Shown: positions 21,736 through 45,249 of the stretch, one piece after another
Numbering within the stretch: position 1 is the first letter of the stretch
How the letters are laid out: every line of letters begins with the position of its first letter
Assembly: GCA_020354645.1 (NCBI GenBank)
Contig: CP070652.1
Coordinates: forward strand, 190,330-254,329
Origin: Deltaproteobacteria bacterium
GTDB lineage: Bacteria > Desulfobacterota > Desulfobacteria > Desulfobacterales > G020354645
Reading direction: 5' to 3'
DNA: 64,000 nt
Translations under genes and position numbers: made by a program
Notes under the pieces: generated by a model
Told to the model about the DNA's origin: nothing
The model's database searches: none
What the model saw: only the letters and a program-made list of their open reading frames with translations

Positions 21736-22956
21736 TTACCGGTAGTCCCAATCCCGTAACCCCCAGATCATTGCAATTATGGCCAAGGCAGTAATTCCAG
21801 CAGAAACCAATCCAGTTGCCTCTATTCCACCGAATGACCAGATAAAACCGCCTATCAATACTCCGATCACTCTCCCAAGGCCACCCGCAGCCGAAAAAAA
21901 AGATATCAGTGTCGCGCGCAACTCCGGCATAATTTCCGTGCAAAGAGAAACAAACACGACAATGGAAAATTCAAATGCTAAAAAAATAATAAAAAGCCCG
22001 ATCAGGGCCGGTGAAAGTGACTTGCCGATAAATGGCAACAATAAGAAGCCTATCAGTGTGATGAATAAACCGATTATGGCTGCCCGTTTCAACCCCACTC
22101 TGTCAGCCAAAAGAGCCGTTAGCAACTCTCCCAAAAACTCGGCGATACCGATCAAGCTGACCCCTAATCCAAGAGCAATAATACTCAATCCAAAATATTC
22201 TTCCAACCAGACACCATACACCACGAAAAGATTATCAATGGCGATGCTTATCAATAATGCGAAAGCCAAAGCGCCCAAAGCCGCACGCTTTTGCACTAAT
22301 TGTTTCCAGGCAACCCATATACTGGCGCTAGCGCTACGTAAAGTCTTTTTTCCATCTCTGGGTATCAGCATTCCCAAGACCATCATACACACTAAACCCG
22401 AACCGGCCAGAAAGAAAAAGGGGGAACGCCACCCCCCCCGGTCTATGAGAAAACCAATTATGGGTATGCCGATCAGTGTGCTCCCTGCCCAACTGAACTC
22501 AAACAAGCCGATCGCCAGACCTCGCCGCCGGTAGGGTATCCGTTCACCGGTATATGCCAGTACGGCCGGATCATAAACGGTTTTTGCCAAACCAGCCATA
22601 AATATCGCTACCAGGACAACCCAGTAAAACGGCCAGAGCCCAACGCTAAACATTCCTAAGACCAACATGCCCAAACCACTCATCATCATCAATCTGTAGC
22701 CAAAACGATCTGCCAGAGGTCCAAAAAACAAGCCCAGCAGCCCGGTAACCTGGTTCACGGCAATTAATGATGTCACTGCAGTTAAAGGTACACCCATCCC
22801 TCGACTCAAGGCAGGTGCAAAGGGATATGCAAATCTGCGGGCGGTAGATAAAAGCAATCGACACAGCGAGGCAATCACTATCTGCCAGACTAAAACTGAA
22901 GATGATCCGATCCGTTGCGAAACATTTGAGTGGTCGGGCATAATCATCCTATTCAA
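21736..22956 (-). CDS. MFS transporter
   Basis: 406 aa, about 12 hydrophobic helices. MFS-like GPLADRFGYR and DRVGLKR loops. Confidence 0.85.
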   Translation of the reverse strand: MNRMIMPDHSNVSQRIGSSSVLVWQIVIASLCRLLLSTARRFAYPFAPALSRGMGVPLTAVTSLIAVNQVTGLLGLFFGPLADRFGYRLMMMSGLGMLVLGMFSVGLWPFYWVVLVAIFMAGLAKTVYDPAVLAYTGERIPYRRRGLAIGLFEFSWAGSTLIGIPIIGFLIDRGGWRSPFFFLAGSGLVCMMVLGMLIPRDGKKTLRSASASIWVAWKQLVQKRAALGALAFALLISIAIDNLFVVYGVWLEEYFGLSIIALGLGVSLIGIAEFLGELLTALLADRVGLKRAAIIGLFITLIGFLLLPFIGKSLSPALIGLFIIFLAFEFSIVVFVSLCTEIMPELRATLISFFSAAGGLGRVIGVLIGGFIWSFGGIEATGLVSAGITALAIIAMIWGLRDWDYR

Positions 22957-22970
22957 AGGGATTCATTGCC

Positions 22971-24377
22971 TTATACATCCCCCTTACCAAGCTGATTGGA
23001 GACCTCAGCCACAGCATCTTTTGCAATGGCAATGATTTGGTCGATATCAGCTTCCATCACGATTAACGGCGGAGCGAATCCGAGAATGTCACCATGGGGC
23101 ATCGGGCGTGCAATCAATCCCCTATCCAAACAGGCCGTCGAAACACGGGCACCCACTTTCAAATCCGCGTCAAACTTCGCCTTGGTGGCTTTATCGGCCA
23201 CAAACTCCAGGGCGCCCAGCAGCGCCACACCGCGGACCTCTCCGACCATGGGATGGTCGTCAAAGGTCTCATGCAGGCGTTTCTGGAAGTATGCGCCGGT
23301 GGTGCGGGCATTTTCAATAATCTTTTCCTTTTCGAGGATAGCAAGGTTTGCCAGACCGGCGGCGGCAGCCAGGGCATGCCCCGAATAGGTCCACCCGTGC
23401 CCGATGGGACCAAATTTTTCACTGCCCTGCTCCAGAACTTCCCAGACCTTGTCACTGACGATAACGCCCGACAGCGGAAGATAACCGCTGGTGAGTCCCT
23501 TGGCAATGGTCATCAGATCGGGTTTAATTTTGTAAAGATCACTACCGAAATTATATCCTACACGACCAAAGCCGGTAACCACTTCATCGACAATCAGCAA
23601 TACGTCGTATTTGTCGAGGATGGGTTGGATTTCGTCCCAGTAGCCCTCAGGGGGCGGGATAATTCCACCGGTCCCCAGTATGGGTTCACCGATGAAGGCA
23701 GCAATCGTATCCGGATTTTCTGCAATGATCTTTTGCTCCAGTTTCTCAGCGCACCAGCGAGAAAACTCCCGTTCGGTCATGCCGTCACGGGCTTCCCGGT
23801 AATAATGCGGCGTTTCGGTATATTTAACGTCATCAACCGGCAGGTTGAAATTTTCCTGAAAAACGGGCAGTCCGGTGAGGCTGCCGGTCATGATTCCCGA
23901 ACCGTGATATCCGCGATAGCGCGAGATGATCTTACGCCTTTGAGGCCGCCCGAGAACATGGTTGTAGTACCAGGCCAGCTTAATCTGGGTCTCATTGGCA
24001 TCCGAGCCGGAAAGGCCGTAAAATACCTTGCTCATGCCCTCCGGTGCCATCGCCAGAATTTTTTCAGAGAGTCTGATCACCGGTTCGTTGGAATGTCCGA
24101 CATAGGTATGGTAGTAAGCCAGTTTTTGGGCTTGGGCATAAATAGCATCGGCGATCTCCATGCGGCCAAAGCCGACGTTGACACAATAGAGACCGGCGAA
24201 ACCATCGATGTATTCATTCCCTTTGGTATCCCGAATGCGGATTCCGTTGCCGGCATCAATGATCCGCGGGGTGCCGAGTTTGCCTCCGGCATGGTCTTTC
24301 AAGTGGGTAGCAGCATGAAAGACGGTGCGACGATCGATTTCTTCCAAACTTAGACTGTGGCGATTTTCACTGTTCAT
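22971..24377 (-). CDS. Class-III (omega) PLP aminotransferase, DoeD/diaminobutyrate- or beta-alanine-type
   Basis: Class-III blocks are present: GFAGLYCVNVGFGR, SGSDANE, LLIVDEVVTGFGRVG and the TIAKGLTSGYLP Lys. GGAGG RBS before ATG 24377. The track ORF starts at 24419. Confidence 0.88.
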   Translation of the reverse strand: MNSENRHSLSLEEIDRRTVFHAATHLKDHAGGKLGTPRIIDAGNGIRIRDTKGNEYIDGFAGLYCVNVGFGRMEIADAIYAQAQKLAYYHTYVGHSNEPVIRLSEKILAMAPEGMSKVFYGLSGSDANETQIKLAWYYNHVLGRPQRRKIISRYRGYHGSGIMTGSLTGLPVFQENFNLPVDDVKYTETPHYYREARDGMTEREFSRWCAEKLEQKIIAENPDTIAAFIGEPILGTGGIIPPPEGYWDEIQPILDKYDVLLIVDEVVTGFGRVGYNFGSDLYKIKPDLMTIAKGLTSGYLPLSGVIVSDKVWEVLEQGSEKFGPIGHGWTYSGHALAAAAGLANLAILEKEKIIENARTTGAYFQKRLHETFDDHPMVGEVRGVALLGALEFVADKATKAKFDADLKVGARVSTACLDRGLIARPMPHGDILGFAPPLIVMEADIDQIIAIAKDAVAEVSNQLGKGDV

Positions 24378-24534
24378 TACAAAACCTCCAGGAGTAATAT
24401 TTATGGATTTTATTTCCAAGCAGCCCCGCTCTTCATGGCGGAGAGCTTTACTTCAGCTGGGATCGAATGTGGGGACTTTTACACTGGATGGGGATGAAAT
24501 GTCAATTCTGATTGATATTTTATTTGGATCTCAA

Positions 24535-25521
24535 TTAATGTTTTTTGTATCGGTTGGCAATAATGTCGGTCAGCAAAGATATATCCACGTTGCTGCCACT
24601 GACAACGACTGCCACATTCTGTCCCAAGTCGGTTATGTGATCGTGCAGGATTGCAGCAATACCAACTGCTCCCGCTCCCTCCACAACCAAGCGATGCGTA
24701 TCAAGCGCAAAGCGCATTGCGGCAGCGATTTCTTCCTCAGAGACCAGCACGATGTCATCGACGGTGTCCCGTACAATCGGAAAGGTGTAAGCATTGTCCA
24801 ATCCGATACCTCCAAGGAGGGCATCAGCCAGACTGTCTTTTTCTTCCACTTCAACCGGCTTGCCGGCTTTTAAGCTATGGTACATAGCCGGTGCGCAATC
24901 CATGGAGACACCGATGATTCGAATCCGCGAATCGGCGGATTTCAGAGCCAGGGCGATCCCGGCGATGAGTCCCCCGCCGGACAGCGGAACAACAACGCTG
25001 TCAACATTGGGAAGGTCTTCGAGAATTTCAATTCCTATAGTCCCCTGGCCCGCAATGATCATAGGATCGTCAAAAGGATTGATCATGGTTAATCCACGGT
25101 CCTTTTCAAGCTTCAGTGCATGGTTGTATGCTTCGTCCTGGCTGCTACCGTGTTGAACAACTTCGGCCCCGAGCGTTTGCATGGCTTCCACCCGGTAGTG
25201 CGGAACCCGGTTGGAAAGGCATATGACCGCATGGATTCCCATTTGCTTGGCCATGTAAGCCACCGCTCGACCGTGATTTCCGGTGGAAAAAGCGATCACA
25301 CCGCATGATTTTTCCTGACTGCTCAAAGAGATAAGTTTGTTCGCAGCCCCGCGGGCCTTGAATGATCCGGTTTCCTGAAGGCTTTCGAGTTTTAAATGCA
25401 CGGAAGCTCCCGCCTGTTCTGAGAGACTACCGGAAAAAATTAACGGTGTTTTACGTACAGTGAGGGATATGCGGTCTCTTGCAAGATAAATATCCCGTAA
25501 GGTTATTTTGCGGTTTCCCAT
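24535..25521 (-). CDS. PLP-dependent threonine/serine dehydratase-family enzyme (EutB-like)
   Basis: LESLQETGSFKARGA carries the PLP-Lys motif. The GGGLIAG glycine loop is present. 328 aa with no ACT regulatory domain. Confidence 0.85.
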   Translation of the reverse strand: MGNRKITLRDIYLARDRISLTVRKTPLIFSGSLSEQAGASVHLKLESLQETGSFKARGAANKLISLSSQEKSCGVIAFSTGNHGRAVAYMAKQMGIHAVICLSNRVPHYRVEAMQTLGAEVVQHGSSQDEAYNHALKLEKDRGLTMINPFDDPMIIAGQGTIGIEILEDLPNVDSVVVPLSGGGLIAGIALALKSADSRIRIIGVSMDCAPAMYHSLKAGKPVEVEEKDSLADALLGGIGLDNAYTFPIVRDTVDDIVLVSEEEIAAAMRFALDTHRLVVEGAGAVGIAAILHDHITDLGQNVAVVVSGSNVDISLLTDIIANRYKKH

Positions 25522-25586
25522 TAGGCTTAACAGCTCCGCTTCATGTGAATGAATTTCAAACTTGTATTTTTAGGAATTGGTCGATG

Positions 25587-26582
25587 TTAATCATGCTGTC
25601 TTTCCAGCCGCTTTTTCGTCGCTCCCAGATAATGCATGATTAAGGCCGCACCCATCATCGAGGTCACCCCGCCGCAGTCAAGACTCGGCGCGATTTCTAA
25701 TACGTCCAACCCTTTTGACAGCGGATGCTGCCCCATCTGCCAGACCATTTCCAGAGCTTCGTATGCGGTTAAGCCACCTGGGTTGGGTGCACACGTTCCC
25801 GGGGCAATGCTCATGTCCAGCCCATCAATGTCGATGCTGAGAAAAATCGCCTGGGTACCATCACTGGCAATCTCAAGCGCCTGTATGATAACATCATCAA
25901 CACCCCGGCGATGGACTTGACGGGCCGGAATGACAGTCACACCAATTTCACGGCAGTAGTCCATGTAATATCGCGAGTTGAGCCACCCATTGATCCCCAC
26001 TTGCACAAGATTCCTGGGTAAGACGGGATTTTCAGGTTCTTCCATGATGCGGCGGAAAGGGGTTCCGCTGGATACTTCTCCGTGGTGCGAGTGACGAACA
26101 TCAAGATGACCATCGATCATGATGACACCGACGTTACCTTCGGTGTTGTTGATCAGCGATTTGACATTCGGATAGGTGATCGAATGATCCCCGCCGATAA
26201 TGACCGGTGTCACGCCAAGTGCGAATACGACTGTCATGACCTGTTCGATCCGGTCGTGGGTACCGAGCACATCGGTTTGCAGGACATCAATATTGCCGAA
26301 ATCCGTGATAATTAACCCTGAAGACAGGTCCACATCGATACTCGGGTCATACACGTTGGAAAAAACTAACGAACTCCGCACGCTTTCCGGCCCGAACCGG
26401 CAACCGCGCCGTCCCATTACAGCGGTATCGAAGGGAACTCCCAGGATGCCGACATCGGCGTGTTCCGCTTCTCTCCAGTCCACCATGATATCGCTCAAGC
26501 CCACATCGTATTCATCCGGTACCCAGTTGGACGGGCGCGGTGCCTCGATCAGCAGCCTCTCAGCCTCTTTTGAGATTTGCAT
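25587..26582 (-). CDS. Arginase/agmatinase/formiminoglutamase-family ureohydrolase
   Basis: Mn-ligand blocks GGDHSITYP, IDGHLDV and SIDIDGLD are typical of the family. Confidence 0.85.
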   Translation of the reverse strand: MQISKEAERLLIEAPRPSNWVPDEYDVGLSDIMVDWREAEHADVGILGVPFDTAVMGRRGCRFGPESVRSSLVFSNVYDPSIDVDLSSGLIITDFGNIDVLQTDVLGTHDRIEQVMTVVFALGVTPVIIGGDHSITYPNVKSLINNTEGNVGVIMIDGHLDVRHSHHGEVSSGTPFRRIMEEPENPVLPRNLVQVGINGWLNSRYYMDYCREIGVTVIPARQVHRRGVDDVIIQALEIASDGTQAIFLSIDIDGLDMSIAPGTCAPNPGGLTAYEALEMVWQMGQHPLSKGLDVLEIAPSLDCGGVTSMMGAALIMHYLGATKKRLERQHD

Positions 26583-26626
26583 ATTCCCTGCCTCTTTCGA
26601 TTAAGTTTAAAGTTGATTCAGCCTTG

Positions 26627-26975
26627 AGTGTTTTCAGAAATAGGTTCCGGTTGCCGGTATTGTCTTGCCAGCCCCGGCAACGGGTGAGCAATTCAGGAAT
26701 CGGGGCAATTTTTTCAACAACCAGATGCCGAATCATTGGCACCGGGGCTTCGAGACGGCGACCGCCCCTCATCTTGCTCCCTGCCGATAGAAAGACCTTT
26801 GCAAAACCACAAGACGCAGCCGCTTTTGCCCAGCGCGGCGGCAGAAGCCCTTTGCCATTTAAAAGCACCGGGGTGATCATCTGGTTGTGAAAAAAATACC
26901 CCGACCCCTGAATCATCCTGCGCAAGAACCGGCCTGAATGAAATAGTTTATCAGAACATTATTTTGAGAATCGCG
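26627..26975. repeat. Family-A MITE-like element, copy A4
   Basis: Right end CAGAACATTATTTTGAGAATCGC. Complementary inner arms GGGGCAATTTTTTCAACAACCAGATG and CATCTGGTTGTGAAAAAAATACCCCG. Confidence 0.7.
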
Positions 26976-27057
26976 CTCGATCAATTCCAGATATCCGGAA
27001 AATGAGCGGGAGGTTTTATCCGAATTCTGCAAAAGATCTCGGGGTCCTTCAATTTAG

Positions 27058-27205
27058 CTATTGTGCAAAACCGGCATTGGGTAAAAACAGTGCAATACTG
27101 GGGAACATAACCAGCAGAATGTTTACCAGTAGCGATATGATAATAAACGGCGGTGTATGCCTGCTCACTTCCAAATACGGTCGGTTTTCAAGATTTTTTC
27201 CGCGT
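27058..27205 (-). pseudogene. Relic of a TRAP large-permease (DctM) C-terminus
   Basis: The minus-strand frame gives NRPYLEVSRHTPPFIIISLLVNILLVMFPSIALFLPNAGFAQ*. This parallels the C-terminus of the intact DctM at 28774 (RRPYLEVISHALPFLLILILATIILIALPDIALFLPNLALGG*). No upstream body remains. Confidence 0.6.
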
Positions 27206-27366
27206 GTTTGAATGCATTTGTTGAAACAAACCCCCAGTCGGTTACGATAAGTGGTTTTTTAATTTTCAGTTCTGACAAATGGCTATGCGAAAATGATTTC
27301 TAATATTTCAAAGGCCCAAATTCTCTTTTATTAAGTAGCTTAAAAAATTATTTTGACGCTTCTCAT

Positions 27367-27685
27367 TTAGGAAACAAACAATTTTCGGGGAAAATTTGCG
27401 AAGGTTTCGCAACCATTTTCGGTTACCACAAAACTTTCGCTGATGATAAAACCCAAATCCTCTTTATCCTCATATTTTTGCCAAATTGGAGGTATCATAT
27501 GGAATGTCATGTTCGGTTTGAGTATCGTTTTATCTCCAGGGAGACAATGACGCCTTGATGTATATAAAACGACCAGCCGTATCCATCAGCAGCAGCATTT
27601 CCATACCGCCTTTGTCCATCATCTCTTTTGTCTTTCGGATCCACCGCTGAAATTCTTCCTTGGAGAATATTAATGTTTTACGCAT
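27367..27685 (-). pseudogene. Internally deleted, frameshifted relic of a DoeA/EutD-like M24 hydrolase gene
   Basis: The N-terminal piece MRKTLIFSKEEFQRWIRKTKEMMDKGGMEMLLLMD resembles the N-termini of 33904-35091 and 41526-42692. After a 1-nt frame change the C-terminal piece reads PGDKTILKPNMTFHMIPP...SESFVVTENGCETFANFPRKLFVS*. About 280 aa of central sequence are missing. Confidence 0.65.
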
Positions 27686-27696
27686 GTGTTGATCAT

Positions 27697-28728
27697 TTAG
27701 TTCTTTTTGGCCCACTCTATGTCTTTGATAACCGCATCTAAGACTTCCTTTGCCCCTTCACCGCCCATCTTCAGATACTTTTGTCTAAGTGGTTTCGCTT
27801 TTTCCCTGAAAGCGCCAATCTCTTCATCCGTCAACTCGATATACTTCATTGTCGGTTTGGCCTTCATAATCATTTGCTTTCGCTGTTCGTTCAACGTAGG
27901 TTCAAAATCGAAAATATACTCATTGGCACTTTCGATGGCACTGTCTATCAGAGCTCGAATATTTTCCGGAAGGCCCCTAATAAATTCATAGTTGGCAGCA
28001 AAAGTTCCGATAAACGGCAGTTGATCGGCTTTGATCATGTAATCCTGGACCTCGTAGAATTTCATCTCCTGGATGGCAAAAAACGGCTGCGTTTCGGCAT
28101 CAATCCGACCTAACGCAAGGTCGTCGTAAATTTGACCATACGGGACTGTAATTACATAAGCGCCGTATAATCGGTAAGCAGTAATGAGAAGTGGTGAGGA
28201 CATCACTCGAAAAGTAATACCCTCGAAATCGGCTGGTTTGCGCAAGGGTTTATTGGCCGTCCAAATTTGCCAACCCTCTTCGATAATGGATAGGAGGTCC
28301 AGCTTGTGCTTTCTGTAATATTTTTGAAGGGCTTTATAAGTATTGGGCCCTTTGCGCAATATTTTCTCGAGGAGCTTGAACTCCGTTGGAAAAAGGTAGT
28401 GAATGGAAAAGACCTGAACCTCGGGAATATAGGAACCCAGGTGACCGGGGGATTGGAAGGCAAAATGAAGATCTCCCTTTTGCAGAAGTTCTGTGATATC
28501 TCCGGACGTACCGAGCTCTCCATATAAGTGAATGTTGCAGCGAATCTCCCCTTTAGATTTCTTCTCTATAATTTCGACAAACTTTTTTGCGTACTCATGT
28601 TGCATACTGCCTTCGATTTCTTCCAGAGCCACTTGCCACAAATATTGAACAGCACCGGCTCTTCCACTGAAGCCAAAGATTAGAGCGCATACTATAAATA
28701 CCGACATGAGCTCTGTTCTTCGTTTCAT
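27697..28728 (-). CDS. TRAP transporter substrate-binding protein (DctP family), copy 1
   Basis: Signal peptide. DctP-type blocks include the conserved Arg context (GITFRVMSSP) and FYEVQDY. Confidence 0.85.
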   Translation of the reverse strand: MKRRTELMSVFIVCALIFGFSGRAGAVQYLWQVALEEIEGSMQHEYAKKFVEIIEKKSKGEIRCNIHLYGELGTSGDITELLQKGDLHFAFQSPGHLGSYIPEVQVFSIHYLFPTEFKLLEKILRKGPNTYKALQKYYRKHKLDLLSIIEEGWQIWTANKPLRKPADFEGITFRVMSSPLLITAYRLYGAYVITVPYGQIYDDLALGRIDAETQPFFAIQEMKFYEVQDYMIKADQLPFIGTFAANYEFIRGLPENIRALIDSAIESANEYIFDFEPTLNEQRKQMIMKAKPTMKYIELTDEEIGAFREKAKPLRQKYLKMGGEGAKEVLDAVIKDIEWAKKN

Positions 28729-36424: not shown

Positions 36425-36440
36425 GTGGTAAGTGCATCGG

Positions 36441-37391: not shown

Positions 37392-38212
37392 TATAGCCCC
37401 TCCTTATCATGATCGCCCGGATCGCCGAGTTGATGGGAAAGTTTGCTGCAAACTTCTCTAATTACTTTCCGGATTTGTTCGATACGCTGGTTTTTTAGCC
37501 GCATTGAAGGTCCAGAGACACTGATGGCATAATGAGCTTGACCCGTATGATTGAAAACCGGTGCAGCGACACACCTTAGACCGGCAGCCAATTCCTCATT
37601 ATCCACTGCAAATCCCTTCTTTCGAATTTTTTTAAGTTCTTTTTTAAGCTTTTCTTTGGAGGTAATCGTGTTGGGGCCAAGCGGTTGGAGCTTTTGCCCA
37701 GCCAAAAAATCATCCAGATCATCTGCAGGCAAATGCGCGAGAATCACTTTGCCCAGGGCGGTGCAGTAAGCCGGTGCAGTGGACCCCAACGGCGTGTCCA
37801 TGCGCAGAATCTCCCGGCTGTCGATTTTGTCCAAATGCAATATCCCCCGGCCGTTCCAGTATCCAAGATTGACAGTTTCATTGAAAGCGTTTGAAATCTC
37901 CTGCATGTAAGGGCGAGCAACCGATCGGATTTCAAATCTAGCGGCAACCTTCATTCCAAGTTCCAGTATCTTCAGAGTTGCCTGATACCGACCCTCGGTG
38001 TTTTTTTCAACATAACCCAAGTCACGGAGGGTGGCTAAAAATCGGTGGCTTCCGGCGCGGTTAATCCCTGAAATTTCGGCAACCCTTGAAACGGTTAACT
38101 CCTTCTCCGCTATGAGGAGTTCCAATATTTTAAGGCCCTTTTGAAGTGAGCTGATTTGGTAATATTTCTTTTTCGGTGGCGTCATCTTTATGGTTTTTGA
38201 ACTATGTCGCAA
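37391..38212 (-). CDS. IclR-family transcriptional regulator
   Basis: N-terminal wHTH (SLQKGLKILELL...LTVSRVAEISGINRAGSHRFLATL) plus a C-terminal IclR effector domain (AVDNEELAAGLRCVAAPV). The start may be the ATG at 38185. Confidence 0.9.
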   Translation of the reverse strand: MRHSSKTIKMTPPKKKYYQISSLQKGLKILELLIAEKELTVSRVAEISGINRAGSHRFLATLRDLGYVEKNTEGRYQATLKILELGMKVAARFEIRSVARPYMQEISNAFNETVNLGYWNGRGILHLDKIDSREILRMDTPLGSTAPAYCTALGKVILAHLPADDLDDFLAGQKLQPLGPNTITSKEKLKKELKKIRKKGFAVDNEELAAGLRCVAAPVFNHTGQAHYAISVSGPSMRLKNQRIEQIRKVIREVCSKLSHQLGDPGDHDKEGL

Positions 38213-38325: not shown

Positions 38326-38339
38326 TTCACTATATGTGA
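38326..38339. promoter_or_regulatory. Candidate operator TTCACTATATGTGA (TCAC-N5-GTGA palindrome) upstream of iclR
   Basis: A 13/14-identical copy (TTCATTATATGTGA) occurs at 41172-41185, in the divergent promoter region of the same island. Confidence 0.4.
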
Positions 38340-38541
38340 CATAGTCTCATATATTATTACAACCTTTAATCACATTAATGGTGCACCTTGTCAAGTCTTT
38401 TTTTTATTTTTTTTACAATTTCTTAAACTACCGTTGATATTCTGATTTTTTTAATATCCCTTCTTGTCTTTAGATTTCGCTCACGCAGAACTCGGAACAT
38501 TTCTCTTGACTCCAGATGAAATACCGACAGAACAACGGATA

Positions 38542-38862
38542 TCAATACCCAACCAGATCTTTGATAACTTTTTTTCTATCCCGGGGTTCGACCACGATAT
38601 CGCCGGTAACGATTTTGGTGCAGCTCAAAACCGATTTTCCGTTCACCATAACAACACATCCTTTGCACAACCCGCACCGACACGACTGGTAAAAGGCCAA
38701 GCCGCCATCATATCGCTCATTAATAAATTGCAAAATGTTTGATACACTCATGCGCTCATTAAGAGGTACTCGGTAGGTTTGATAATAAGGCTCTTTTCCA
38801 ATTTCCCGTGAAAACCGCAATATTTTTACATTGATTTCGGAATTAGACATTGTCCTGATCAT
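38542..38862 (-). CDS. Stand-alone 2Fe-2S protein equivalent to the N-terminal domain of SdhB/FrdB
   Basis: SCRCGLCKGCVVMVNGKSVLSC has the C-x4-C-x2-C-x11-C spacing of the SdhB 2Fe-2S site. At 106 aa it has no 4Fe-4S or 3Fe-4S domain. Confidence 0.75.
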   Translation of the reverse strand: MIRTMSNSEINVKILRFSREIGKEPYYQTYRVPLNERMSVSNILQFINERYDGGLAFYQSCRCGLCKGCVVMVNGKSVLSCTKIVTGDIVVEPRDRKKVIKDLVGY

Positions 38863-38867
38863 TCCCG

Positions 38868-40586
38868 CTACTCAATAGGGTTACGCGGATAAATCTCCAA
38901 ACCGGAGGCTGTTAATTCTACGACCAAATTGCATCGCCACTTTTCGATCTGCTGGGGCCAATCAATTCGGTAATGAACACCGCGGCTTTCTTCCCTGGCC
39001 AACGCGCATTGAATGATCGCTTCCAAGAGAATCAATAGGTTCCTGTTTTGGAGTACCTGTATCCATTCTGGATTATAGACGCGATCCTTGCAAGTAAGAC
39101 CAGATTGATGGTGTTCATGCGTGAGCTCTTTGAGAGAAGCCAGGGCCCCTTCAAGTTCCTGGCCATCGCGAATTGGGCCCACTTTCCCCCAAGCCCTTTC
39201 TTGAATCTTTTTCTTAACCATAAAGGTTGTATGGCTGCCTTTTCTTTCCAACGGAGCTTGGGCCTCCGTAACAATTTCATCGATTTGCGATTGGTCAACC
39301 ACTGACCCGTTTGCCTGTTTGGCATACTCGGCCGCCTTGCGACCGGCCATTTCACCTGCCACAAGTATCTCCATACAGGCATTTCCGGAAAGTCGGTTGG
39401 CGCCATGCAGCCCGCCGACCACTTCTCCTGCGGCAAATAGGCCCGGCAAAGAGGTCTGGCAATCCAGATCCACGTCGATCCCACCAACAAAAAAATGACA
39501 AGCAGGGCCAACTTCCAACGCTTCTCCCCGGGAGAGGATATCCCGGATGAATGAAAAGTCAAAGCCTTCAAACCGCCAATTCTTCTTCAGATGCAATTTT
39601 AAGGTCCGGTTGGCAAAATCATCCAAAATGTTGCGGGGTAGATGTGCTAGAGATAGATAAATGCCACCATTTGGTGTGCCGCGACCGTGCTTGACTTCAT
39701 AACCGATGGCTGCAGATAATTTGTCTCGCGTCGTTTTTTCGAGAAGTTCCGGATCCCAGCGGCGCATGAAACGCTCTCCCCGGCGGTTCAAAAGCCAACC
39801 ATCGAGAGAATCCACACTTTCTGCAACCAATGAAAAGGGAAAGTAACTGCCCCTGTAAGGCAGTGGTCCTATTAGGCAAAGTGGCATGAACTGTATCATT
39901 TCGAAGTCGACGAGACGGGCACCGGCTCGAAGGGCCATGGCGTAGCCATCGCCGGTGAGTTCCACTGCTCCGGTCTGGATAGGATACAGCATAGATCCGC
40001 CTCCTGTCGCCAGAATGACCGCGCGTGCGCGAAACACGGCAAATTCGCCGGTTCGCAAATCCAGCCCGATTGCTCCGATAACCGAATTTCCAGTGGTCAG
40101 CAGATCTATAACAAAGGTGTACTCTTTTACTGTTAGGTCAACGGAGCGCAGCTGTTTATTTAATACACGGACGATCTCTCGACCGGTGGTGCTGACACCC
40201 CGAGGATAACGGTGGCCTGGACACTGCATCACGCCTCTAATTTTCATGCCCCAGGCCATCATCTCTTTGACCCGTATCGGAGCTGCTTCAACAATTTTTT
40301 CAGCAAGGGGAAGGTTGTTGATGAATTTTCCTGCCCTTAAAATGTCTTCCAGAAAAATTTGAGGACTGTCTTTTGAATTTCCGACAGATAAGCCCAGAAC
40401 ATCGAAGATACTGGCCCCGTCGACGCTAATGTCTGCAGCAGCCATCAGGGTTGCACCGCTTTTCCCTATGCGTCCCTTGGTTACGATCAGTACTGAAGCC
40501 CCCTGTTTTGCCGCCGCGATGGCCGCTCGAGTGCCAGCACCTTCACTGCCGATAATCAAAACGTCGGTATCGTAAATAGTATTCAT
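38868..40586 (-). CDS. FAD flavoprotein of the succinate dehydrogenase / fumarate reductase / L-aspartate oxidase family
   Basis: DVLIIGSEGAGTRAA dinucleotide fold. GLFAAGEVVGGLHGANRLSGN and SRGVHYRIDWP blocks. The His used for covalent FAD in SdhA is absent (SGATLMAAAD), as in NadB. Confidence 0.85.
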   Translation of the reverse strand: MNTIYDTDVLIIGSEGAGTRAAIAAAKQGASVLIVTKGRIGKSGATLMAAADISVDGASIFDVLGLSVGNSKDSPQIFLEDILRAGKFINNLPLAEKIVEAAPIRVKEMMAWGMKIRGVMQCPGHRYPRGVSTTGREIVRVLNKQLRSVDLTVKEYTFVIDLLTTGNSVIGAIGLDLRTGEFAVFRARAVILATGGGSMLYPIQTGAVELTGDGYAMALRAGARLVDFEMIQFMPLCLIGPLPYRGSYFPFSLVAESVDSLDGWLLNRRGERFMRRWDPELLEKTTRDKLSAAIGYEVKHGRGTPNGGIYLSLAHLPRNILDDFANRTLKLHLKKNWRFEGFDFSFIRDILSRGEALEVGPACHFFVGGIDVDLDCQTSLPGLFAAGEVVGGLHGANRLSGNACMEILVAGEMAGRKAAEYAKQANGSVVDQSQIDEIVTEAQAPLERKGSHTTFMVKKKIQERAWGKVGPIRDGQELEGALASLKELTHEHHQSGLTCKDRVYNPEWIQVLQNRNLLILLEAIIQCALAREESRGVHYRIDWPQQIEKWRCNLVVELTASGLEIYPRNPIE

Positions 40587-40645
40587 TGGGTGGGAGGTGG
40601 ATCTGAACTACATGAAATAACCACCGTAAAATTAAAAGGATTGAA

Positions 40646-41107
40646 TCAAGGTTCAACTTCCACGATCATTTCAATTTCAACCGCGATGTTGCCCGGCAGC
40701 GAAATCGTACCGACGGCGGATCGAGCATGTTTTCCGGCAGGGCCGAAGACCTCTACGAGCAAATCAGAAGCACCATTGATCACTTTGGGTTGATCGTAAA
40801 AATCAGGTGTGCAATTGACCATAGCCAAAAGCTTAACGATTCGCCTGATCTTGTCCAGATCACCCAGTTCCTTTTTTAAAGACGCCAGCAGATTGACGAC
40901 CGTCCGGCGGGCAGCCTCGTAGCCCTGCTCTAAATTCAGATCCTGTCCCAGCTTGCCGGTGATCAGGGTTCCATCCGGTCGGCGTGGGTCGTGACCCGAT
41001 AAAAAGATCAGGTTGTCTGTCCGAACAGCCTTGATATAATTGGCTTCCGGCGTCACAGGCGATGGGAGTTCAATCCCCATTTCTTTGAGCTTTGCTTCGG
41101 GTTTCAT
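40646..41107 (-). CDS. RidA/YjgF/TdcF-family enamine/imine deaminase
   Basis: About 153 aa with family blocks LIFLSGH and ARSAVGTISLPGNIAVEIEMIVEV. AAGAGGG RBS before ATG 41107. The track ORF starts at 41137. Confidence 0.85.
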   Translation of the reverse strand: MKPEAKLKEMGIELPSPVTPEANYIKAVRTDNLIFLSGHDPRRPDGTLITGKLGQDLNLEQGYEAARRTVVNLLASLKKELGDLDKIRRIVKLLAMVNCTPDFYDQPKVINGASDLLVEVFGPAGKHARSAVGTISLPGNIAVEIEMIVEVEP

Positions 41108-41171
41108 AGACGGTGCCCTCTTATCAGGAAAATTCAATTTTAAGTGCTTCTAACAAAGCGGTTCAACATTA

Positions 41172-41185
41172 TTCATTATATGTGA
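41172..41185. promoter_or_regulatory. Second copy of the candidate IclR operator (TTCATTATATGTGA)
   Basis: Lies in the divergent intergenic region between ridA (minus) and the second doeA-like gene (plus). 13/14 identical to 38326-38339. Confidence 0.4.
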
Positions 41186-41389
41186 TTATGTTCTATATTA
41201 TGTTATATTTTCCTAACCAAGCAAAATGTCCATGTCAAGCTACAATAATTGCTTGCCTGTTGACAAAACAAATTTCCAAGCAGTATGTGAAGGTTCAGCG
41301 ACAGTGAAACTTTAACTGTAAGACGTTGGCAGGATTGATAAATTTTTGATTTCTTGGATTCGAAAGTCGCTCAAATTGGGTTGGAATCT

Positions 41390-41467: not shown

Positions 41468-41525
41468 ACATTATGAGGAAATGGCCCCCCGTCAATCAAT
41501 AATTACCAAAGAGGTGATTGCAATA

Positions 41526-42692
41526 ATGTATTTTGAGTTCATAGAATACCAAGAAAGATTGAGAAAAATCAAGGAAGCCATGTACAAACAGGGAATCGAA
41601 GTTCTCCTGGTGACCGATCCCGCTAATATGAATTATGTGTCCGGTTATGACGGCTGGTCTTTCTATGTTCATCAGGGAGTCCTGGTCATTATTGACCGGG
41701 ACGAGCCGATCTGGTTTGGACGTCAGCAGGACAGCAATGGTGCACGCTTGACCACCTGGCTGAATGATGAGAGCATCCGCGGCTATCAGGACGACTACGT
41801 GCAATCGAAACTCAAGCATCAGATGGACTTTGTTGCGGACATACTCAAAGAGAGCGGTTGGGATCGAAGAAGCCTGGGGGTTGAAATGGACAATTATTAT
41901 TTTACCGGCCAGTGCCTGGAACAGCTTCGAAAGAATTTACCGCAAACCAGAATTATGGATGCCAATCTATTGGTTAACTGGATTCGGGTCATCAAGTCCG
42001 ATAAAGAAATCGAATACATGATAATGGCGGCCCGCATCGTGGAAAATGTCATGCAAACCGCCATCGAAGCAATTGGACCGGGGGTGAGAGAGGGTGATGC
42101 CGCCGGCAAGGTCTACCAGGCACAGATTCGCGGCACGCCTGAATATACCGGTGATTACAGCGCCATCATACCCATCATGCCGTCCGGCATCAGAACCTCC
42201 ACGGCCCATCTGTCCTGGACCGACCGGAAATATGAAACCGGGGACATGGTATTGCTTGAATTGTCAGGATGTAAATACCGCTATCATGCTCCGCTTTCCC
42301 GGACAGTGATGATCGGCAAAGCTCCGGCAGAACTTCAAGATATTGCCAAGGTGGTGATCGAGGGATTAAATCAAACCATCGATTTTATCAAACCGGGAGT
42401 CACCGCAGAAGAGGTGGAACAAAAATGGCGGGAGGCCATTGCAGGCAGTACCGTTGCCAAAGAGTCTCGTATCGGATATTGTTATGGACTGAATTACCCC
42501 CCGGATTGGGGTGAACACACCATTAGTTTGCGTCCCGGAGACAAGAACGTGCTCCAACCAAATATGACCTTGCATGTGATGCCCGGTATTTGGATCGAAA
42601 AATTCGGTTTCGAGTGCAGTGAACCGGTCCGGGTTACAGATAACGGTTGCGAGACATTTGTCAATTTTGCGAGAGAGCTTTTTATCAAATAA
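41526..42692 (+). CDS. M24-family creatinase/ectoine-hydrolase-like protein (DoeA/EutD-like), copy 2
   Basis: Collinear with copy 1 (LLVTDPANMNYVSGYDGWSFYVHQ..., YPPDWGEHTISLRPGDKNVLQPNMTLH, ARELFIK*). AAGAGGTGA RBS before ATG 41526. The track ORF starts at 41481. Confidence 0.8.
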   Translation: MYFEFIEYQERLRKIKEAMYKQGIEVLLVTDPANMNYVSGYDGWSFYVHQGVLVIIDRDEPIWFGRQQDSNGARLTTWLNDESIRGYQDDYVQSKLKHQMDFVADILKESGWDRRSLGVEMDNYYFTGQCLEQLRKNLPQTRIMDANLLVNWIRVIKSDKEIEYMIMAARIVENVMQTAIEAIGPGVREGDAAGKVYQAQIRGTPEYTGDYSAIIPIMPSGIRTSTAHLSWTDRKYETGDMVLLELSGCKYRYHAPLSRTVMIGKAPAELQDIAKVVIEGLNQTIDFIKPGVTAEEVEQKWREAIAGSTVAKESRIGYCYGLNYPPDWGEHTISLRPGDKNVLQPNMTLHVMPGIWIEKFGFECSEPVRVTDNGCETFVNFARELFIK

Positions 42693-42712
42693 CAGAAAGG
42701 TAGAATGAATCG

Positions 42713-43711
42713 ATGAAGGTTAGAATCCTGACGGAGAAAGAATTGCGCCGGTCCATTTCGGTCAATCAAGAGGCGCTTGCTGCAATTGAAGAAGCTTTCA
42801 GCTGGCTGGCGGAAGGAAAGGCGACGATGCCGCCAATTATGCATATCGAAGTGCCGGAATATAAGGGAGATGTGGATATCAAATCGGCCTATGTCTTAGG
42901 GCTGGAAAGCTTTGCCGTTAAATTGGGGGCCGGGTTTTTTGAAAACTACCGCCTGGGATTGCCCAACAGCCCCGCGATGATGGTTGTCCTCAGCGCCAAG
43001 ACCGGTTTTGCCGAGGCAGTTCTGTTGGATAATGCTTATCTGACCGATGTGAGAACCGGGGCCGCGGGCGCGGTGGTGGCAAAACACCTGGCACGCGCCA
43101 GCATCGAAAGTGCCGGTGTTATCGGAGCCGGCGCCCAGGGTCGCTACCAAATGATGGGGCTCAAGGTAGTTCGCGACTTCAAACGACTGCTGGCTTATGA
43201 CACCGACGCAGATCGGCTTGCACAATATAAACAGGAAATGGAGCCGGTCTTGGGGGTTGAGGTCATTGCTGCCGCTGACGCCAGCGAAGTCGTAAAAGAA
43301 AGCGATGCGGTGGTCACCAGCACACCTTCCCGCACGCCTTACCTGAAACCGGAATGGCTCCACCCGGGTTTACACATCACCGCCATGGGCGCTGATCTTC
43401 CGGATAAACAGGAGCTTGATCCGGAGGTGTTAAGACTGGCCGATTTGCTGGTATGCGACCGCAAAGCTCAATGCTTTTCAATGGGTGAGCTGCACCACGG
43501 CCTGACAACCGGGATTCTTTCCGAAGATTCTGACATTACCGAGTTGGGGGAAATCACATCCGGCAGGGCGCCCGGTCGGCAAAACGATGATCAGATCACT
43601 CTGTGTGATCTGACCGGCACCGGCGTCCAGGACACCGCAATAGCCTGTCTTGCTTTACACAAGGCCATTGAAAATGGGTTGGGGGTTGAAATCGACCTCG
43701 GTCTCCCGTGA
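42713..43711 (+). CDS. Ornithine cyclodeaminase / mu-crystallin-family NAD(P) enzyme (EutC-like)
   Basis: 332 aa. Rossmann GVIGAGAQG motif and family-typical blocks (LTDVRTGAA, TAMGAD). Confidence 0.87.
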   Translation: MKVRILTEKELRRSISVNQEALAAIEEAFSWLAEGKATMPPIMHIEVPEYKGDVDIKSAYVLGLESFAVKLGAGFFENYRLGLPNSPAMMVVLSAKTGFAEAVLLDNAYLTDVRTGAAGAVVAKHLARASIESAGVIGAGAQGRYQMMGLKVVRDFKRLLAYDTDADRLAQYKQEMEPVLGVEVIAAADASEVVKESDAVVTSTPSRTPYLKPEWLHPGLHITAMGADLPDKQELDPEVLRLADLLVCDRKAQCFSMGELHHGLTTGILSEDSDITELGEITSGRAPGRQNDDQITLCDLTGTGVQDTAIACLALHKAIENGLGVEIDLGLP

Positions 43712-43855
43712 TTATCACGACTGTTCCCATACAATTTAGCCCTAAAAAAACCACAGCTCACACGGAGGATATAACAAATCCAATTCAACCCCGATTCCAC
43801 AAATAAAGTCTGGCATGGGATACGTTGTTTAATGTTAACATAATAGGATAAAGCC

Positions 43856-44467
43856 ATGATAGAAATGGGAACATTGGTTAGCGAGGTCCGCGTGCCGGGT
43901 GGGTATGCCAAAGCATTTGAGATGAAAAAGTCACAATTTTTAACCATAATCGATGTTGAAGGGCAGCAGGTTGGTGATTTCGTGGCCTTCAGCAAGTCAG
44001 ATCTCAAAGAAAAACTTTCTCCGGTGCATACCAGAACCTCCCTGCTGAAGGTGAAGATTTCGATGGGTGATATCCTGCGGAGCAACTATCGAAACCCGAT
44101 GTTTAAAATTGTTGCCGATGCAGTGGGGTGTCATGACATACTGTTGGCCATGTGTGACGAACAACGTTACCTTGTCGATTATGGCGTCAAAGATCATCGA
44201 AGTTGTCTGGCTAATTTTGAAGAGGTGTTACGAACATATGGCATTTCACGAGAGCAGATTCCTGATCCCTTTAATACTTTTCAACACACTAAAATAAAGG
44301 CCGACGGGTCGCTGCTACAGCTGCCCGGCCTGTCGCAACCTGGAGACTGTATTGTGTTTCAGGCACTGATGGATGTAATCGGCGCCGTCTCTGCCTGCCC
44401 CATGGATTTAAATCCAATTGGCGGCAACAAAATAAGCGACCTCATCATTAAGATCAATGAGAGATGA
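43856..44467 (+). CDS. DUF1989-family protein (urea-carboxylase-associated / carboxyguanidine-deiminase-like fold)
   Basis: About 200 aa with N-terminal VPGGYAKAFEMKKSQFLTIIDVEGQQVGDF and a C-terminal ACPMDLNP-type block, as I recall for this family. Confidence 0.65.
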   Translation: MIEMGTLVSEVRVPGGYAKAFEMKKSQFLTIIDVEGQQVGDFVAFSKSDLKEKLSPVHTRTSLLKVKISMGDILRSNYRNPMFKIVADAVGCHDILLAMCDEQRYLVDYGVKDHRSCLANFEEVLRTYGISREQIPDPFNTFQHTKIKADGSLLQLPGLSQPGDCIVFQALMDVIGAVSACPMDLNPIGGNKISDLIIKINER

Positions 44468-44556
44468 AATAAGCTACTAGATCTGGTTATCAAATCACCT
44501 CTAGTCAATTCATCCCAATCGATTCCTCCGAAACTCGAATTACAGGGAAAACTTCT

Positions 44557-45249
44557 ATGGCAGACAGTTTGCCAACGAACATTCACGAGTTGGCGGAACT
44601 AAGAAATCGGACGGCAGTGTTTCACGACCGGATCCACGCCGGCCAGGTACTGGCTGAAATGTTGTCGGCTTTTGATCAAAACGGCGGAATCGTGCTGGGT
44701 ATCCCGGCAGGCGGTGTGCCGGTTGCCGCTGAAATTGCCAAAAAACTCGGTTTGCCGTTTGATATAGCCGTGGTGAGCAAAATCACGCTTCCGTGGAATA
44801 CTGAGGCCGGCTATGGCGCTGTGGCTTTCGACGGAACTCACCGGTTAAACGAGGAGATGCTGCCCCGGCTGGGATTATCGCAAAAGGAGATACGAGCCGG
44901 TATCGAAAAAACAAGTTCAAAAGTTCTCCAGCGGGTTGTCAGCCTGCGGGGTGAAAAACCTTTCCCTGAGCTTTCCCGAAAAAAAGTCATTGTGGTCGAC
45001 GACGGTCTGGCTTCCGGCTTTACCATGCGTGTGGCGGTGGAGACTTTGAGCAAAGCAGGTGCAGAACACATCATAGTGGCGGTACCCACCGGCCATAGCG
45101 AAACTGTAGAAAAAATTTCCACTAAAGTCGAAGCGCTCTATTGCCCGAATATTCGTGGCGGTTGGCGTTTTGCGGTGGCAGATGCCTATGAGAAATGGTC
45201 GGATGTACCCGACATTGAAATTCGTAAAATAGTCAAGAAACTTCTGTGA
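44557..45249 (+). CDS. Type-I phosphoribosyltransferase-domain protein
   Basis: PRPP-binding loop VIVVDDGLASGFTM. 230 aa. Confidence 0.8.
   Translation: MADSLPTNIHELAELRNRTAVFHDRIHAGQVLAEMLSAFDQNGGIVLGIPAGGVPVAAEIAKKLGLPFDIAVVSKITLPWNTEAGYGAVAFDGTHRLNEEMLPRLGLSQKEIRAGIEKTSSKVLQRVVSLRGEKPFPELSRKKVIVVDDGLASGFTMRVAVETLSKAGAEHIIVAVPTGHSETVEKISTKVEALYCPNIRGGWRFAVADAYEKWSDVPDIEIRKIVKKLL

Follow-up and report, generated by a model that had tools for sequence, protein, structure and literature searches.

A putative Thermodesulfobacteriota-type ectoine cluster in a Desulfobacterales genome

Described ectoine clusters and the locus under study

Ectoines are among the most abundant bacterial osmolytes, and to our knowledge experiments have demonstrated their degradation only in aerobically grown Proteobacteria. 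We analyzed a 64,000-nucleotide stretch from the metagenome-assembled genome of an uncultured marine Deltaproteobacteria bacterium of the Desulfobacterales (GenBank assembly GCA_020354645.1, contig CP070652.1, positions 190,330 to 254,329 of the forward strand), hereafter called the window, in which a gene cluster at 21.7-45.2 kb resembles those for the uptake and degradation of ectoine and 5-hydroxyectoine. Canonical ectoine catabolism is described in PMC5924519; the ectoine consumers predicted as of 2018 were all Proteobacteria, including one Desulfovibrio (PMC5924519). Putative ectoine clusters in further Thermodesulfobacteriota have since been reported in silico (PMC13188858, AEM, April 2026; Fig. 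6). They comprise 9-13 contiguous co-directional genes, usually with two copies of eutD, lack eutE and ssd and are not syntenic with Proteobacteria; the authors expressly describe them as tentative and leave the extra "gray" genes uninterpreted. The same study presents the cluster of Desulfospira joergensenii (Fig. 1D), complete canonical clusters in two Desulfovibrio relatives, Maridesulfovibrio and Oceanidesulfovibrio, and a putative Bacillales cluster with the order pucR-eutBCD-atf-abgB-thrA-adh-eutD-msf (PMC13188858).

The Thermodesulfobacteriota-type putative ectoine cluster (PMC13188858) is the best category for the window. The cluster type is therefore not new, although a first-pass annotation, made from the sequence alone, had suggested an undescribed route. 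From homology and gene context we consider it fairly probable that the region represents, in its Desulfobacterota form, a cluster for taking up and degrading ectoine and 5-hydroxyectoine. None of the canonical Doe/Eut steps (hydrolase, deacetylase, transaminase, NAD-dependent dehydrogenase) uses O2, and canonical clusters occur in Desulfovibrio relatives, so the difference is one of lineage and not of oxygen: what had been described as a probably anaerobic enzyme set is better read as a lineage-specific variant. The gene inventory of that annotation was found almost gene for gene at 21.7-45.2 kb by open reading frame (ORF) listing and family scans, every listed gene being present, as 18 co-directional genes on the minus strand running from 41137 to 21736 and a divergent plus-strand unit starting at 41481.

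A conserved core with ectoine-type enzymes and transporters

A genome scan with the first of the two M24 hydrolases of the window (M24 number 1) returned 25 loci, which were mapped by tblastn and called genes and are cited below by their working numbers (L001 and so on). In about 18 Desulfobacterota loci the genes follow the order IclR - PanB homologue - U316, a 316-amino-acid (aa) protein - (class I/II aminotransferase or a glutamate dehydrogenase (GDH)-like ELFV dehydrogenase) - M24 - racemase-like - M20 - (TRAP DctPQM or Ehu ABC) - EutB - (DctP2) - (second M24) - RidA. The hosts are Desulfopila inferna, Desulfoferrobacter suflitae and metagenome-assembled genomes (MAGs) labelled Desulfobacterales, Desulfobacteraceae, Desulfococcaceae and Desulfohalobiaceae. 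Recurrence of this order in about 18 independent loci is more than chance would give, and the comparison of neighborhoods across Desulfobacterota that the first-pass annotation had proposed uncovers a shared core. In CP070771, the second M24 gene (76% identity) and the gene of an ornithine-cyclodeaminase/mu-crystallin (OCD) family protein (68%) are divergent from IclR, exactly as in the window. Close M24 orthologues are very common in metagenome and MAG data (at least 8000 scored candidates, the best 120 all at least 74% identical), and the Olavius Delta 1 symbiont is the source of one homologue. The window genes on which this reading mainly turns are listed here, with scores given, as throughout, in bits against the cut-off of the curated family model (NCBIfam/TIGRFAM, Pfam).

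24535-25521, minus strand: EutB-type pyridoxal phosphate (PLP) dehydratase of the threonine-dehydratase family, a core gene
27697-28728, minus strand: DctP2, second TRAP substrate-binding protein (PDB matches)
28774-30063, minus strand: DctM, TRAP membrane subunit (TIGR00786, 322 bits vs 268)
30060-30644, minus strand: DctQ, TRAP membrane subunit
30716-31816, minus strand: DctP1, first TRAP substrate-binding protein, TeaA/UehA-like (PDB matches)
31856-33064, minus strand: M20D aminoacylase-type amidohydrolase (TIGR01891, 347 bits vs 154)
33140-33871, minus strand: Asp/Glu-racemase-superfamily protein of the PRK07475 type, in the "EutA position" (NF005679, 284 bits vs 231)
33904-35091, minus strand: DoeA-like M24 number 1 (TIGR02993, 502 bits vs 613)
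35210-36424, minus strand: class I/II aminotransferase (family-level matches only)
36441-37391, minus strand: U316, 316-aa TIM-barrel protein by its predicted fold, without Pfam, NCBIfam or PDB sequence match
37391-38212, minus strand: IclR-family regulator (BhcR, 196 bits vs 350; PcaR, 194 vs 285)
41481-42692, plus strand: DoeA-like M24 number 2 (TIGR02993, 471 bits vs 613)
42713-43711, plus strand: OCD family protein, EutC-like (NF006141, 431 bits vs 408)

For both M24 proteins, the best NCBIfam family is DoeA (502 bits for number 1, 471 for number 2), followed by DoeA_2 (~205-214 bits, cut-off 575) and PepQ (76-103 bits); both lie below the TIGR02993 equivalog cut-off of 613, yet DoeA leads every other family by over 250 bits. 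The best PDB match of M24 number 1 is the ectoine hydrolase DoeA of H. elongata (6TWK, 6TWJ; 414 bits, E=6e-123). Its identity to DoeA is 48%, that of number 2 is 43%, and the two paralogues are 58% identical to each other. Orthologues of number 1 occur at 67-77% identity in about 20 loci, while number 2 has a 76% orthologue in L032, in the same divergent placement adjoining IclR. We also considered the M24 proteins as prolidases or creatinases and rejected both readings on scores: besides the low PepQ scores, prolidase PDB chains reach at most 82 bits with number 1 vs 414 for DoeA, and no PDB chain named creatinase matches it at E<=1e-10; the DoeA-like assignment of the first-pass annotation holds on this point. 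Source annotations name many of the M24 homologues "Xaa-Pro dipeptidase" or "M24 family metallopeptidase", and the deposited M24 protein of the window begins 4 codons after the first in-frame start codon of the ORF.

DoeA-like proteins are not confined to ectoine clusters: in three alphaproteobacterial loci (L021, L022, L023) a DoeA-like M24 scores ~425 bits, below the cut-off, and no other cluster genes lie within 10 kb. In two MAGs of Solirubrobacteraceae, Actinomycetota (L019, 2976-11158; L020, 1410-11182), a DoeA-like M24 with 505-510 bits to TIGR02993 adjoins arginase-family genes and, in one or other locus, a class-III aminotransferase or a DUF1989-like gene, so that families which are accessory in the window co-occur with DoeA-like genes in another phylum.

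The transporters point in the same direction as the hydrolases. The best PDB matches of DctP1 are TeaA (3GYY, 2VPN) and UehA (3FXB), at 175 bits and ~35% identity, and those of DctP2 are 4PFI (250 bits) and then TeaA (3GYY, 2VPN) and UehA (3FXB), the identity of the two proteins to TeaA/UehA being 33-36%. We compared both at seven positions (E9/F66/R144/W167/N184/W188/F209) that are reported to be ligand contacts of TeaA (Kuhlmann et al. 2008), checking residue types only, against the 2VPN sequence. DctP1 carries E/W/R/Y/N/A/F, with four identical residues (E9, R144, N184, F209) and two aromatic swaps, and DctP2 carries E/H/R/Y/Q/A/F. The equivalent of Glu9, which reportedly contacts the positive charge of the ligand (Kuhlmann et al. 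2008), is retained in both. On the question of ectoine-type pockets raised by the first-pass annotation, TeaA and UehA are among the nearest structures and the pocket residues are only partly kept. Among relatives, DctP2 has orthologues at 73-79% identity in L012, L013, L016 and L024, and DctM and DctQ have orthologues at 76-91%.

In two Desulfobacterales/Desulfobacteraceae MAGs (L017, 9069-12298; L018, 7186-10364), an EhuBCDA ABC transporter replaces the TRAP genes in the same core. All four L018 proteins pass the equivalog cut-offs (EhuB, 283 bits vs 191; EhuC, 269 vs 197; EhuD, 307 vs 205; EhuA, 390 vs 345), and EhuB and EhuA of L017 are 94% identical to their L018 counterparts. That one ectoine-type transporter has been exchanged for another, in an operon otherwise conserved, speaks well for the substrate as far as gene context goes. 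These two loci are also without the racemase-like gene, and in L018 an OCD gene directly follows EutB and is itself followed by genes for a PepQ-like M24 and a CysK-like PLP enzyme.

Among the other enzymes, the dehydratase passes the EutB model NF005680 (443 bits vs 413) and has orthologues at 52-70% identity in 12 related loci. The OCD protein falls below the EutC model TIGR02992 (383 bits vs 472) and passes NF006141, "cyclodeaminase"; its orthologues stand beside the M24 gene in L032 (68%) and beside EutB in L018 (53%). The M20 protein belongs to the N-acyl-amino-acid amidohydrolase subgroup (CpsA, 383 bits vs 500; DoeB2, NF038260, 257 vs 550), with YxeP, ILL2 and N-acyl-glutamine aminoacylase as its nearest solved structures, and is kept beside the M24 gene in relatives. 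It does occupy the place that the first-pass annotation gave it in lieu of DoeB, although such a replacement is not unprecedented, NCBIfam having an M20-type DoeB2 model, to which the window protein does not belong. The gene placed in the EutA position does encode a racemase-superfamily protein and is kept in most relatives (L017 and L018 excepted), but the protein has no match to the EutA model TIGR02990 even at E<=0.1, and no PDB sequence match.

The slot between U316 and M24 is filled by orthologues of the class I/II aminotransferase (69-78%) in L009-L011, L015, L017, L018, L026 and L032, and by the GDH-like ELFV dehydrogenase in L001-L004, L007, L008, L012, L016 and L024; an ELFV dehydrogenase gene also stands before the M24 gene in L013 and L006, truncated in the latter by the end of the contig. 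This alternation suggests an alpha-deamination step yielding a 2-oxo acid. At the two ends of the core, the IclR gene heads the operon in relatives (50-65% identity) and a canonical 125-aa RidA closes it, instead of the 163-aa YjgF protein of the window.

The absences reported in the first-pass annotation are borne out within the sequence covered. No ORF matched an AstE/AspA-type DoeB/EutE at 21.7-45.2 kb or among the larger flanking ORFs scanned, and the same holds for an aldehyde dehydrogenase of the DoeC/Ssd type; no MocR/AsnC-type regulator (EnuR, AsnC) was found among the ORFs scanned in the 64 kb, the sole cluster regulator being of the IclR family.

The most conserved protein of the cluster is U316, with 77-88% identity across relatives vs 67-77% for M24. 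It matched no Pfam or NCBIfam family and no PDB sequence, and a PDB profile comparison gave nothing significant. Its AlphaFold model from a diverse alignment is a (beta/alpha)8 barrel with a pLDDT of 95 (49 when only orthologues of at least 83% identity were used), to which, by Foldseek, the nearest structures are those of YdjI, AgaY, FBA class II and the U32 protein Mk0906 (TM 0.41-0.52, 10-14% identity). The Pfam family Peptidase_U32 is matched at E<=0.1 by 26 of 39 diverse members of the U316 family, mostly weakly (best 7.7e-8). The predicted (beta/alpha)8 fold thus remotely resembles that of class II (metal-dependent) aldolases and peptidase U32, but U316 has neither a conserved His-based zinc site nor a Cys motif as in the Fe-S-containing U32. 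Family-wide conserved residues are E40, R147, D153, K176, N201, R215, D223, R237 and K254. On its modeled structure, U316 is a TIM-barrel protein of an undescribed family, which comprises about 740 representative clusters at 50% identity; a search of metagenome and MAG data gave 2259 matches at E<=0.001, the best 120 at least 84% identical.

A PanB homologue precedes U316 in every relative having that region, and that of L008 passes the panB cut-offs. In the window it is absent, the IclR and U316 genes abutting each other, and no PanB was found among the ORFs scanned across the 64 kb. Profile comparison of U316 with PanB revealed no relationship.

Relatives of U316 also occur in other contexts. 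In L033 (= L037; 1513-6830), two MttB-family methyltransferase genes flank a relative (P0244, 44% identity), with a Cys/Met-metabolism PLP enzyme adjoining, another osmolyte or one-carbon context for the family. A subfamily of ~297 aa sits, around position 8000, in a conserved operon (L047, L074, L062, L066, L103, L111 and others) with the order ATP-grasp - MmgE/PrpD - aldo/keto reductase - thiamine pyrophosphate (TPP) enzyme - U316-like - C-C_Bond_Lyase (PF15617) - fumarase-like beta, alpha - DegT aminotransferase. These neighbor families appear in 26-54 of the 80 loci of a single-protein metagenome scan with P0244, which include human-gut, fermentation and marine metagenome contigs.

Accessory genes, module B and gene relics

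The remaining features of the region are the following.

21736-22956, minus strand: major facilitator superfamily (MFS) transporter, last gene of the array; weak MFS family matches, membership uncertain
22971-24419, minus strand: class-III (omega) aminotransferase (NF005684, 767 bits vs 687), accessory to the window
25587-26582, minus strand: arginase/agmatinase/HutG-family ureohydrolase (HutG, 203 bits vs 229; agmatinase, 157 vs 174), module B
27076-27183, minus strand: DctM C-terminus remnant of 36 codons (tblastx against the DctM gene ends in 11 related loci)
27373-27673, minus strand: M24 (DoeA-like) pseudogene with its middle deleted (tblastn)
38332-38353, no strand assigned: 22-bp motif TATATGAGACTATGTCACATAT, candidate operator upstream of the IclR gene, with a second copy at 41177-41198
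38542-38862, minus strand: 106-aa 2Fe-2S protein, SdhB/TfrB N-terminal domain only (TIGR00384, 74 bits), module B
38868-40586, minus strand: FrdA/NadB/TfrA-like flavoprotein (TfrA, 403 bits vs 718; NadB, 259 vs 453), module B
40646-41137, minus strand: YjgF/RidA-superfamily protein, 163 aa (PF14588)
43856-44467, plus strand: DUF1989 protein (PF09347, 162 bits; UAAP models and the Tdm N-terminal domain also match), membership uncertain
44557-45249, plus strand: phosphoribosyltransferase (PF00156, 65 bits), absent from all related loci and probably unrelated

Several of these genes stand apart from the conserved core. In two other Desulfobacterales loci (L030, 7621-21719; L031, 6295-21719) we found a recurrent second cluster, module B, with the order arginase-family - EamA - FrdA-like flavoprotein - 2Fe-2S - Ldh_2 - M20/M28 - second arginase-family - 2-hydroxyacid dehydrogenase - racemase-like paralogue - SDR - TRAP. 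The arginase-like protein of the window is 85-87% identical to the product of the arginase-family gene two genes upstream of the flavoprotein in L030/L031, and its 2Fe-2S protein is 53% identical to that of the Fer2_3 gene following this flavoprotein. The closest homologues of the window flavoprotein (62-63% identity) are encoded in arginase/Ldh_2/M20/TRAP clusters. None of the three genes has an orthologue beside the core in relatives, and in CP070771 module B lies 3.9 Mb from the IclR-PanB-U316-aminotransferase-M24 locus, near which there is no transporter, M20, racemase-like gene or EutB. The flavoprotein, 2Fe-2S and arginase-like genes thus probably form a separate module, and together with the YjgF gene they probably belong to a sister module that acts on a related solute. 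Because module B includes a TeaA-like DctP (47% identical to DctP1) and a racemase-like paralogue (58% identical to that of the window), its substrate may likewise be a related solute, perhaps of a guanidino or opine-like kind. L031 also contains fragments of PanB, OCD and flavoprotein genes, plus insertion sequence genes.

The stretch between DctP2 and the arginase-like gene (26583-27697) is a gene graveyard that holds an M24 relic, the DctM remnant and a 121-aa ORF (26560-26925) without family match. Of the M24 relic, which the first-pass annotation had recognized and which we located at 27373-27673, ~50 N-terminal and 56 C-terminal codons survive; it is 68% identical to M24 number 1 over 56 aa, and its N-terminal pieces match the second-copy M24 of L024 and L008. 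An M24 relic adjacent to a DctM remnant marks this stretch as a rearrangement scar, and it looks like one left by recombination between two cluster copies or modules. Since the flavoprotein/arginase set recurs elsewhere as module B, the window appears to interleave parts of two modules, which fits the gene relics. An inverted repeat pair lies in the same stretch (26691-26727 / 26878-26913), with 37-51-bp stretches similar to sequence near 14732-15048; these copies may be a small dispersed intergenic repeat.

The genes that the first-pass annotation had found in place of the canonical ones accordingly fall into groups: M20, U316 and IclR belong to the conserved core, while the flavoprotein, 2Fe-2S and arginase-like genes belong to module B, and the DUF1989 and 163-aa YjgF genes are absent from the relatives' clusters. 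As for the phosphoribosyltransferase gene, no orthologues of DUF1989, of the 163-aa YjgF protein or of this gene stand beside the core in Desulfobacterota relatives. The class-III aminotransferase described as DoeD-like is present with a score above its cut-off, and its sequence makes it a candidate DoeD/Atf-like diaminobutyrate (DABA) transaminase, but it too has no orthologue beside the core in these relatives. An MFS gene at 34-37% identity likewise ends the cluster in L007 and L008. The span of 21736-45249 proposed earlier does contain the cluster genes; its last ORF (44557-45249) is probably not a member.

A near-identical 22-bp AT-rich motif (TATATGWGAYTATGTYMYATAT) lies upstream of both the IclR operon (38332-38353) and the YjgF-flavoprotein operon (41177-41198). 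As a candidate shared operator it is a weak lead: the pattern was derived from its two window sites, so its statistic is circular, and the motif is absent from related loci. A scan of the window found terminator-like sites to be no commoner than in shuffled sequence, and 41 promoter-like sites vs 25 expected, with intergenic gaps not singled out.

The term island, used in the first-pass annotation, is not warranted. There is no tRNA in the 64 kb, no transposase, integrase or other mobile-element family was found among the ORFs scanned, and G+C is only slightly raised (0.46-0.52 in the cluster vs 0.43-0.47 in the flanks); on these grounds, including the ordinary composition, we ruled out a genomic island. 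The flanks encode, at 662-3698 and 19933-20493, proteins in keeping with a strictly anaerobic host: an HdrB-like CCG-domain protein, a rubrerythrin/nigerythrin-like protein and a 4Fe-4S oxidoreductase. Immediately downstream of the cluster, 45591-48325 holds a 411-aa ORF without Pfam or NCBIfam match and then a protein of the PepD-type beta-Ala-His dipeptidase family (46877-48325; TIGR01893, 595 bits vs 344).

Proposed route, rival readings and comparison with known systems

The route that we propose is drawn at every step from homology or context. A TeaA/UehA-type TRAP transporter with two binding proteins would import a zwitterionic solute, whose cyclic amidine would be opened by a DoeA-like M24 hydrolase, yielding N-alpha-acetyl-diaminobutyrate or the 3-hydroxylated counterpart. 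The other M24 paralogue may take the hydroxylated substrate or the other ring-opening regiochemistry. The M20D aminoacylase-type enzyme would then remove acetate in place of DoeB/EutE. On the hydroxylated branch, the EutB-type dehydratase would convert 3-hydroxy-diaminobutyrate to a 2-imino acid, which may be reduced to diaminobutyrate by the OCD-family protein (as by BhcB/BhcD) or hydrolyzed with the assistance of RidA to 4-amino-2-oxobutanoate; the racemase-like protein would adjust stereochemistry. Nitrogen removal by the class I/II aminotransferase, or by the GDH-like dehydrogenase in relatives, would make a 2-oxo acid, and in the window only the class-III aminotransferase could additionally yield aspartate semialdehyde, as DoeD does. 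Further downstream, and speculatively, U316 and, in relatives, the PanB homologue would process the 2-oxo acid. The IclR regulator would act in place of EnuR/AsnC.

One specific form of the last step can be spelled out, although we regard it as a long shot: diaminobutyrate and 3-hydroxy-diaminobutyrate would converge on 4-amino-2-oxobutanoate, which U316 and the PanB paralogue would split to pyruvate and a tetrahydrofolate-bound C1 unit. In this speculative scheme the aminotransferase or GDH-like enzyme would serve diaminobutyrate, and EutB with RidA would serve 3-hydroxy-diaminobutyrate. PanB chemistry couples methylene-tetrahydrofolate to a 2-oxo acid. The circumstantial clues are this chemistry, gene adjacency, the alternation of aminotransferase and dehydrogenase, and the contexts of U316 relatives, whose neighbors are aminotransferases, a TPP-dependent enzyme, a C-C lyase or MttB methyltransferases. 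If true, the C1 unit would enter folate-linked one-carbon metabolism, for example the Wood-Ljungdahl pathway where present, and the route would dispense with DoeD and DoeC and give U316 a first function.

A number of observations weigh against ectoine as the substrate. When set against the eut family models, a check that the first-pass annotation had suggested, the dehydratase passes NF005680 but just misses the other EutB model, TIGR02991 (403 bits vs 413), the DoeA and EutC homologues stay below their cut-offs and the racemase-like protein is without any EutA match, so that apart from EutB, by one of two models, no Eut/Doe equivalog threshold is reached. The binding pockets depart from TeaA at W188 (Ala in both DctPs), F66 and W167, and DctP2 is more like 4PFI, whose PDB molecule name gives no ligand. 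The sub-threshold DoeA-like proteins of L021-L023, which stand without the other genes, indicate that M24 similarity alone leaves the substrate unfixed. Relatives do not keep the DoeD-like aminotransferase, and no gene takes the place of DoeC. A literature search found no growth, induction or enzyme data for Desulfobacterota with the cluster, and no experimental work on ectoine degradation by sulfate reducers.

These points could also reflect the same architecture and logic acting on a different zwitterionic amidine or N-acyl-diamino acid, such as N-gamma-acetyl-diaminobutyrate, N-epsilon-acetyl-beta-lysine, another cyclic amidino/guanidino amino acid or an osmolyte of sediments or invertebrates. 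In favor of such a substrate are the DoeA-family scores, all under the equivalog cut-off, the partly conserved pocket residues, the non-EutA racemase-like protein and the relatives of amidino/guanidino hydrolases (arginase-family and DUF1989) that recur with DoeA-like genes in Solirubrobacteraceae, while the TeaA-like DctP of module B, at 47% to DctP1, implies at least two related ligands in these organisms. We nevertheless rate it as rather unlikely, because the EhuABCD proteins of L018 score at equivalog level as ectoine/hydroxyectoine transporters, one curated EutB cut-off is passed and DoeA is by far the nearest characterized enzyme. Generic peptide or amino-acid scavenging, by a prolidase-type M24, an M20 dipeptidase, aminotransferases and a dicarboxylate-type TRAP transporter, would agree with the "Xaa-Pro dipeptidase" labels of the homologues and with the PepD-like gene just downstream (46877-48325). 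We hold it to be very improbable, given the low prolidase scores (at most 82 bits vs 414 for DoeA), the Glu9-equivalent of ectoine binders in both binding proteins and a tight synteny with EutB and an Ehu or TeaA-type transporter that does not fit scavenging.

How far the unit extends is a further question, one that does not conflict with an ectoine reading of the core. The 23.5 kb may not be one unit, consisting instead of an ectoine-type core and an unrelated catabolic module for a guanidino or opine-like substrate (the arginase-like, flavoprotein, 2Fe-2S and YjgF genes, with DUF1989 and the class-III aminotransferase as further neighbors) joined by rearrangement. This is quite possible, if short of probable. 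It would account for the homologues of the arginase-like, flavoprotein and 2Fe-2S genes sitting together in L030/L031 with their own TRAP genes, for the 3.9 Mb between module B and the core locus in CP070771, and for the M24 and DctM relics adjoining the arginase-like gene. Set against it are the TeaA-like binding protein and the racemase-like paralogue (58%) carried by module B; the CP070771 core, whose want of a transporter, M20, racemase-like gene and EutB suggests that both loci may complement each other; and the 22-bp motif common to the IclR and YjgF-flavoprotein operons, a weak and circular argument.

Should the assignment to ectoine be right, sulfate reducers would make up a considerable anoxic sink for ectoines in sediments and possibly in gutless-worm symbioses, with the textbook deacetylase, regulator and everything after diaminobutyrate replaced. 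Of most interest are the highly conserved, undescribed TIM-barrel family, the route after diaminobutyrate and how common the cluster appears to be in sulfate reducers, judging by metagenome and MAG data.

Compared with described systems, the window is closest to the Thermodesulfobacteriota clusters (PMC13188858), with which it shares co-directional genes, two eutD homologues, eutA/B/C-like genes, a TRAP transporter and the lack of eutE/ssd and of synteny with Proteobacteria. Unlike the relatives of this type that we examined, it has no PanB homologue, and it has as extras the YjgF-flavoprotein-2Fe-2S trio, the arginase-like gene, the class-III aminotransferase and the gene relics. With the canonical Doe/Eut systems it has in common TeaA/UehA-type TRAP uptake, a DoeA/EutD-family hydrolase, an EutB-type dehydratase, an EutC-like OCD protein and, in the window only, a class-III aminotransferase. 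It differs from them in having an M20D amidohydrolase for DoeB/EutE, no DoeC/Ssd, IclR for EnuR/AsnC, a racemase-like protein that is not of the EutA family, two DoeA paralogues, two binding proteins, and the additional conserved U316, PanB homologue (in relatives) and aminotransferase or GDH-like dehydrogenase.

An M20-type amidohydrolase for DoeB/EutE is also a feature of the Bacillales cluster and of the DoeA_2-DoeB2 models (NF038259, NF038260), and the Bacillales cluster further resembles the window in its two eutD copies, its MFS gene at the end and its non-EnuR regulator. The window is nonetheless without thrA or adh, and its proteins score low with these models (M20, 257 bits to DoeB2; M24s, 205-214 to DoeA_2). 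The trio of an IclR regulator, a PLP-dependent beta-hydroxy-amino-acid dehydratase and an OCD-family imine reductase recalls BhcR/BhcB/BhcD of the beta-hydroxyaspartate cycle. With 196/239/194 bits, far below the cut-offs of 350/550/500, and no BhcA or BhcC in the window, this is a resemblance of mechanism and not membership. As a mechanistic template, the beta-hydroxyaspartate cycle suggests how hydroxy-diaminobutyrate could be converted to diaminobutyrate without release of ammonia.

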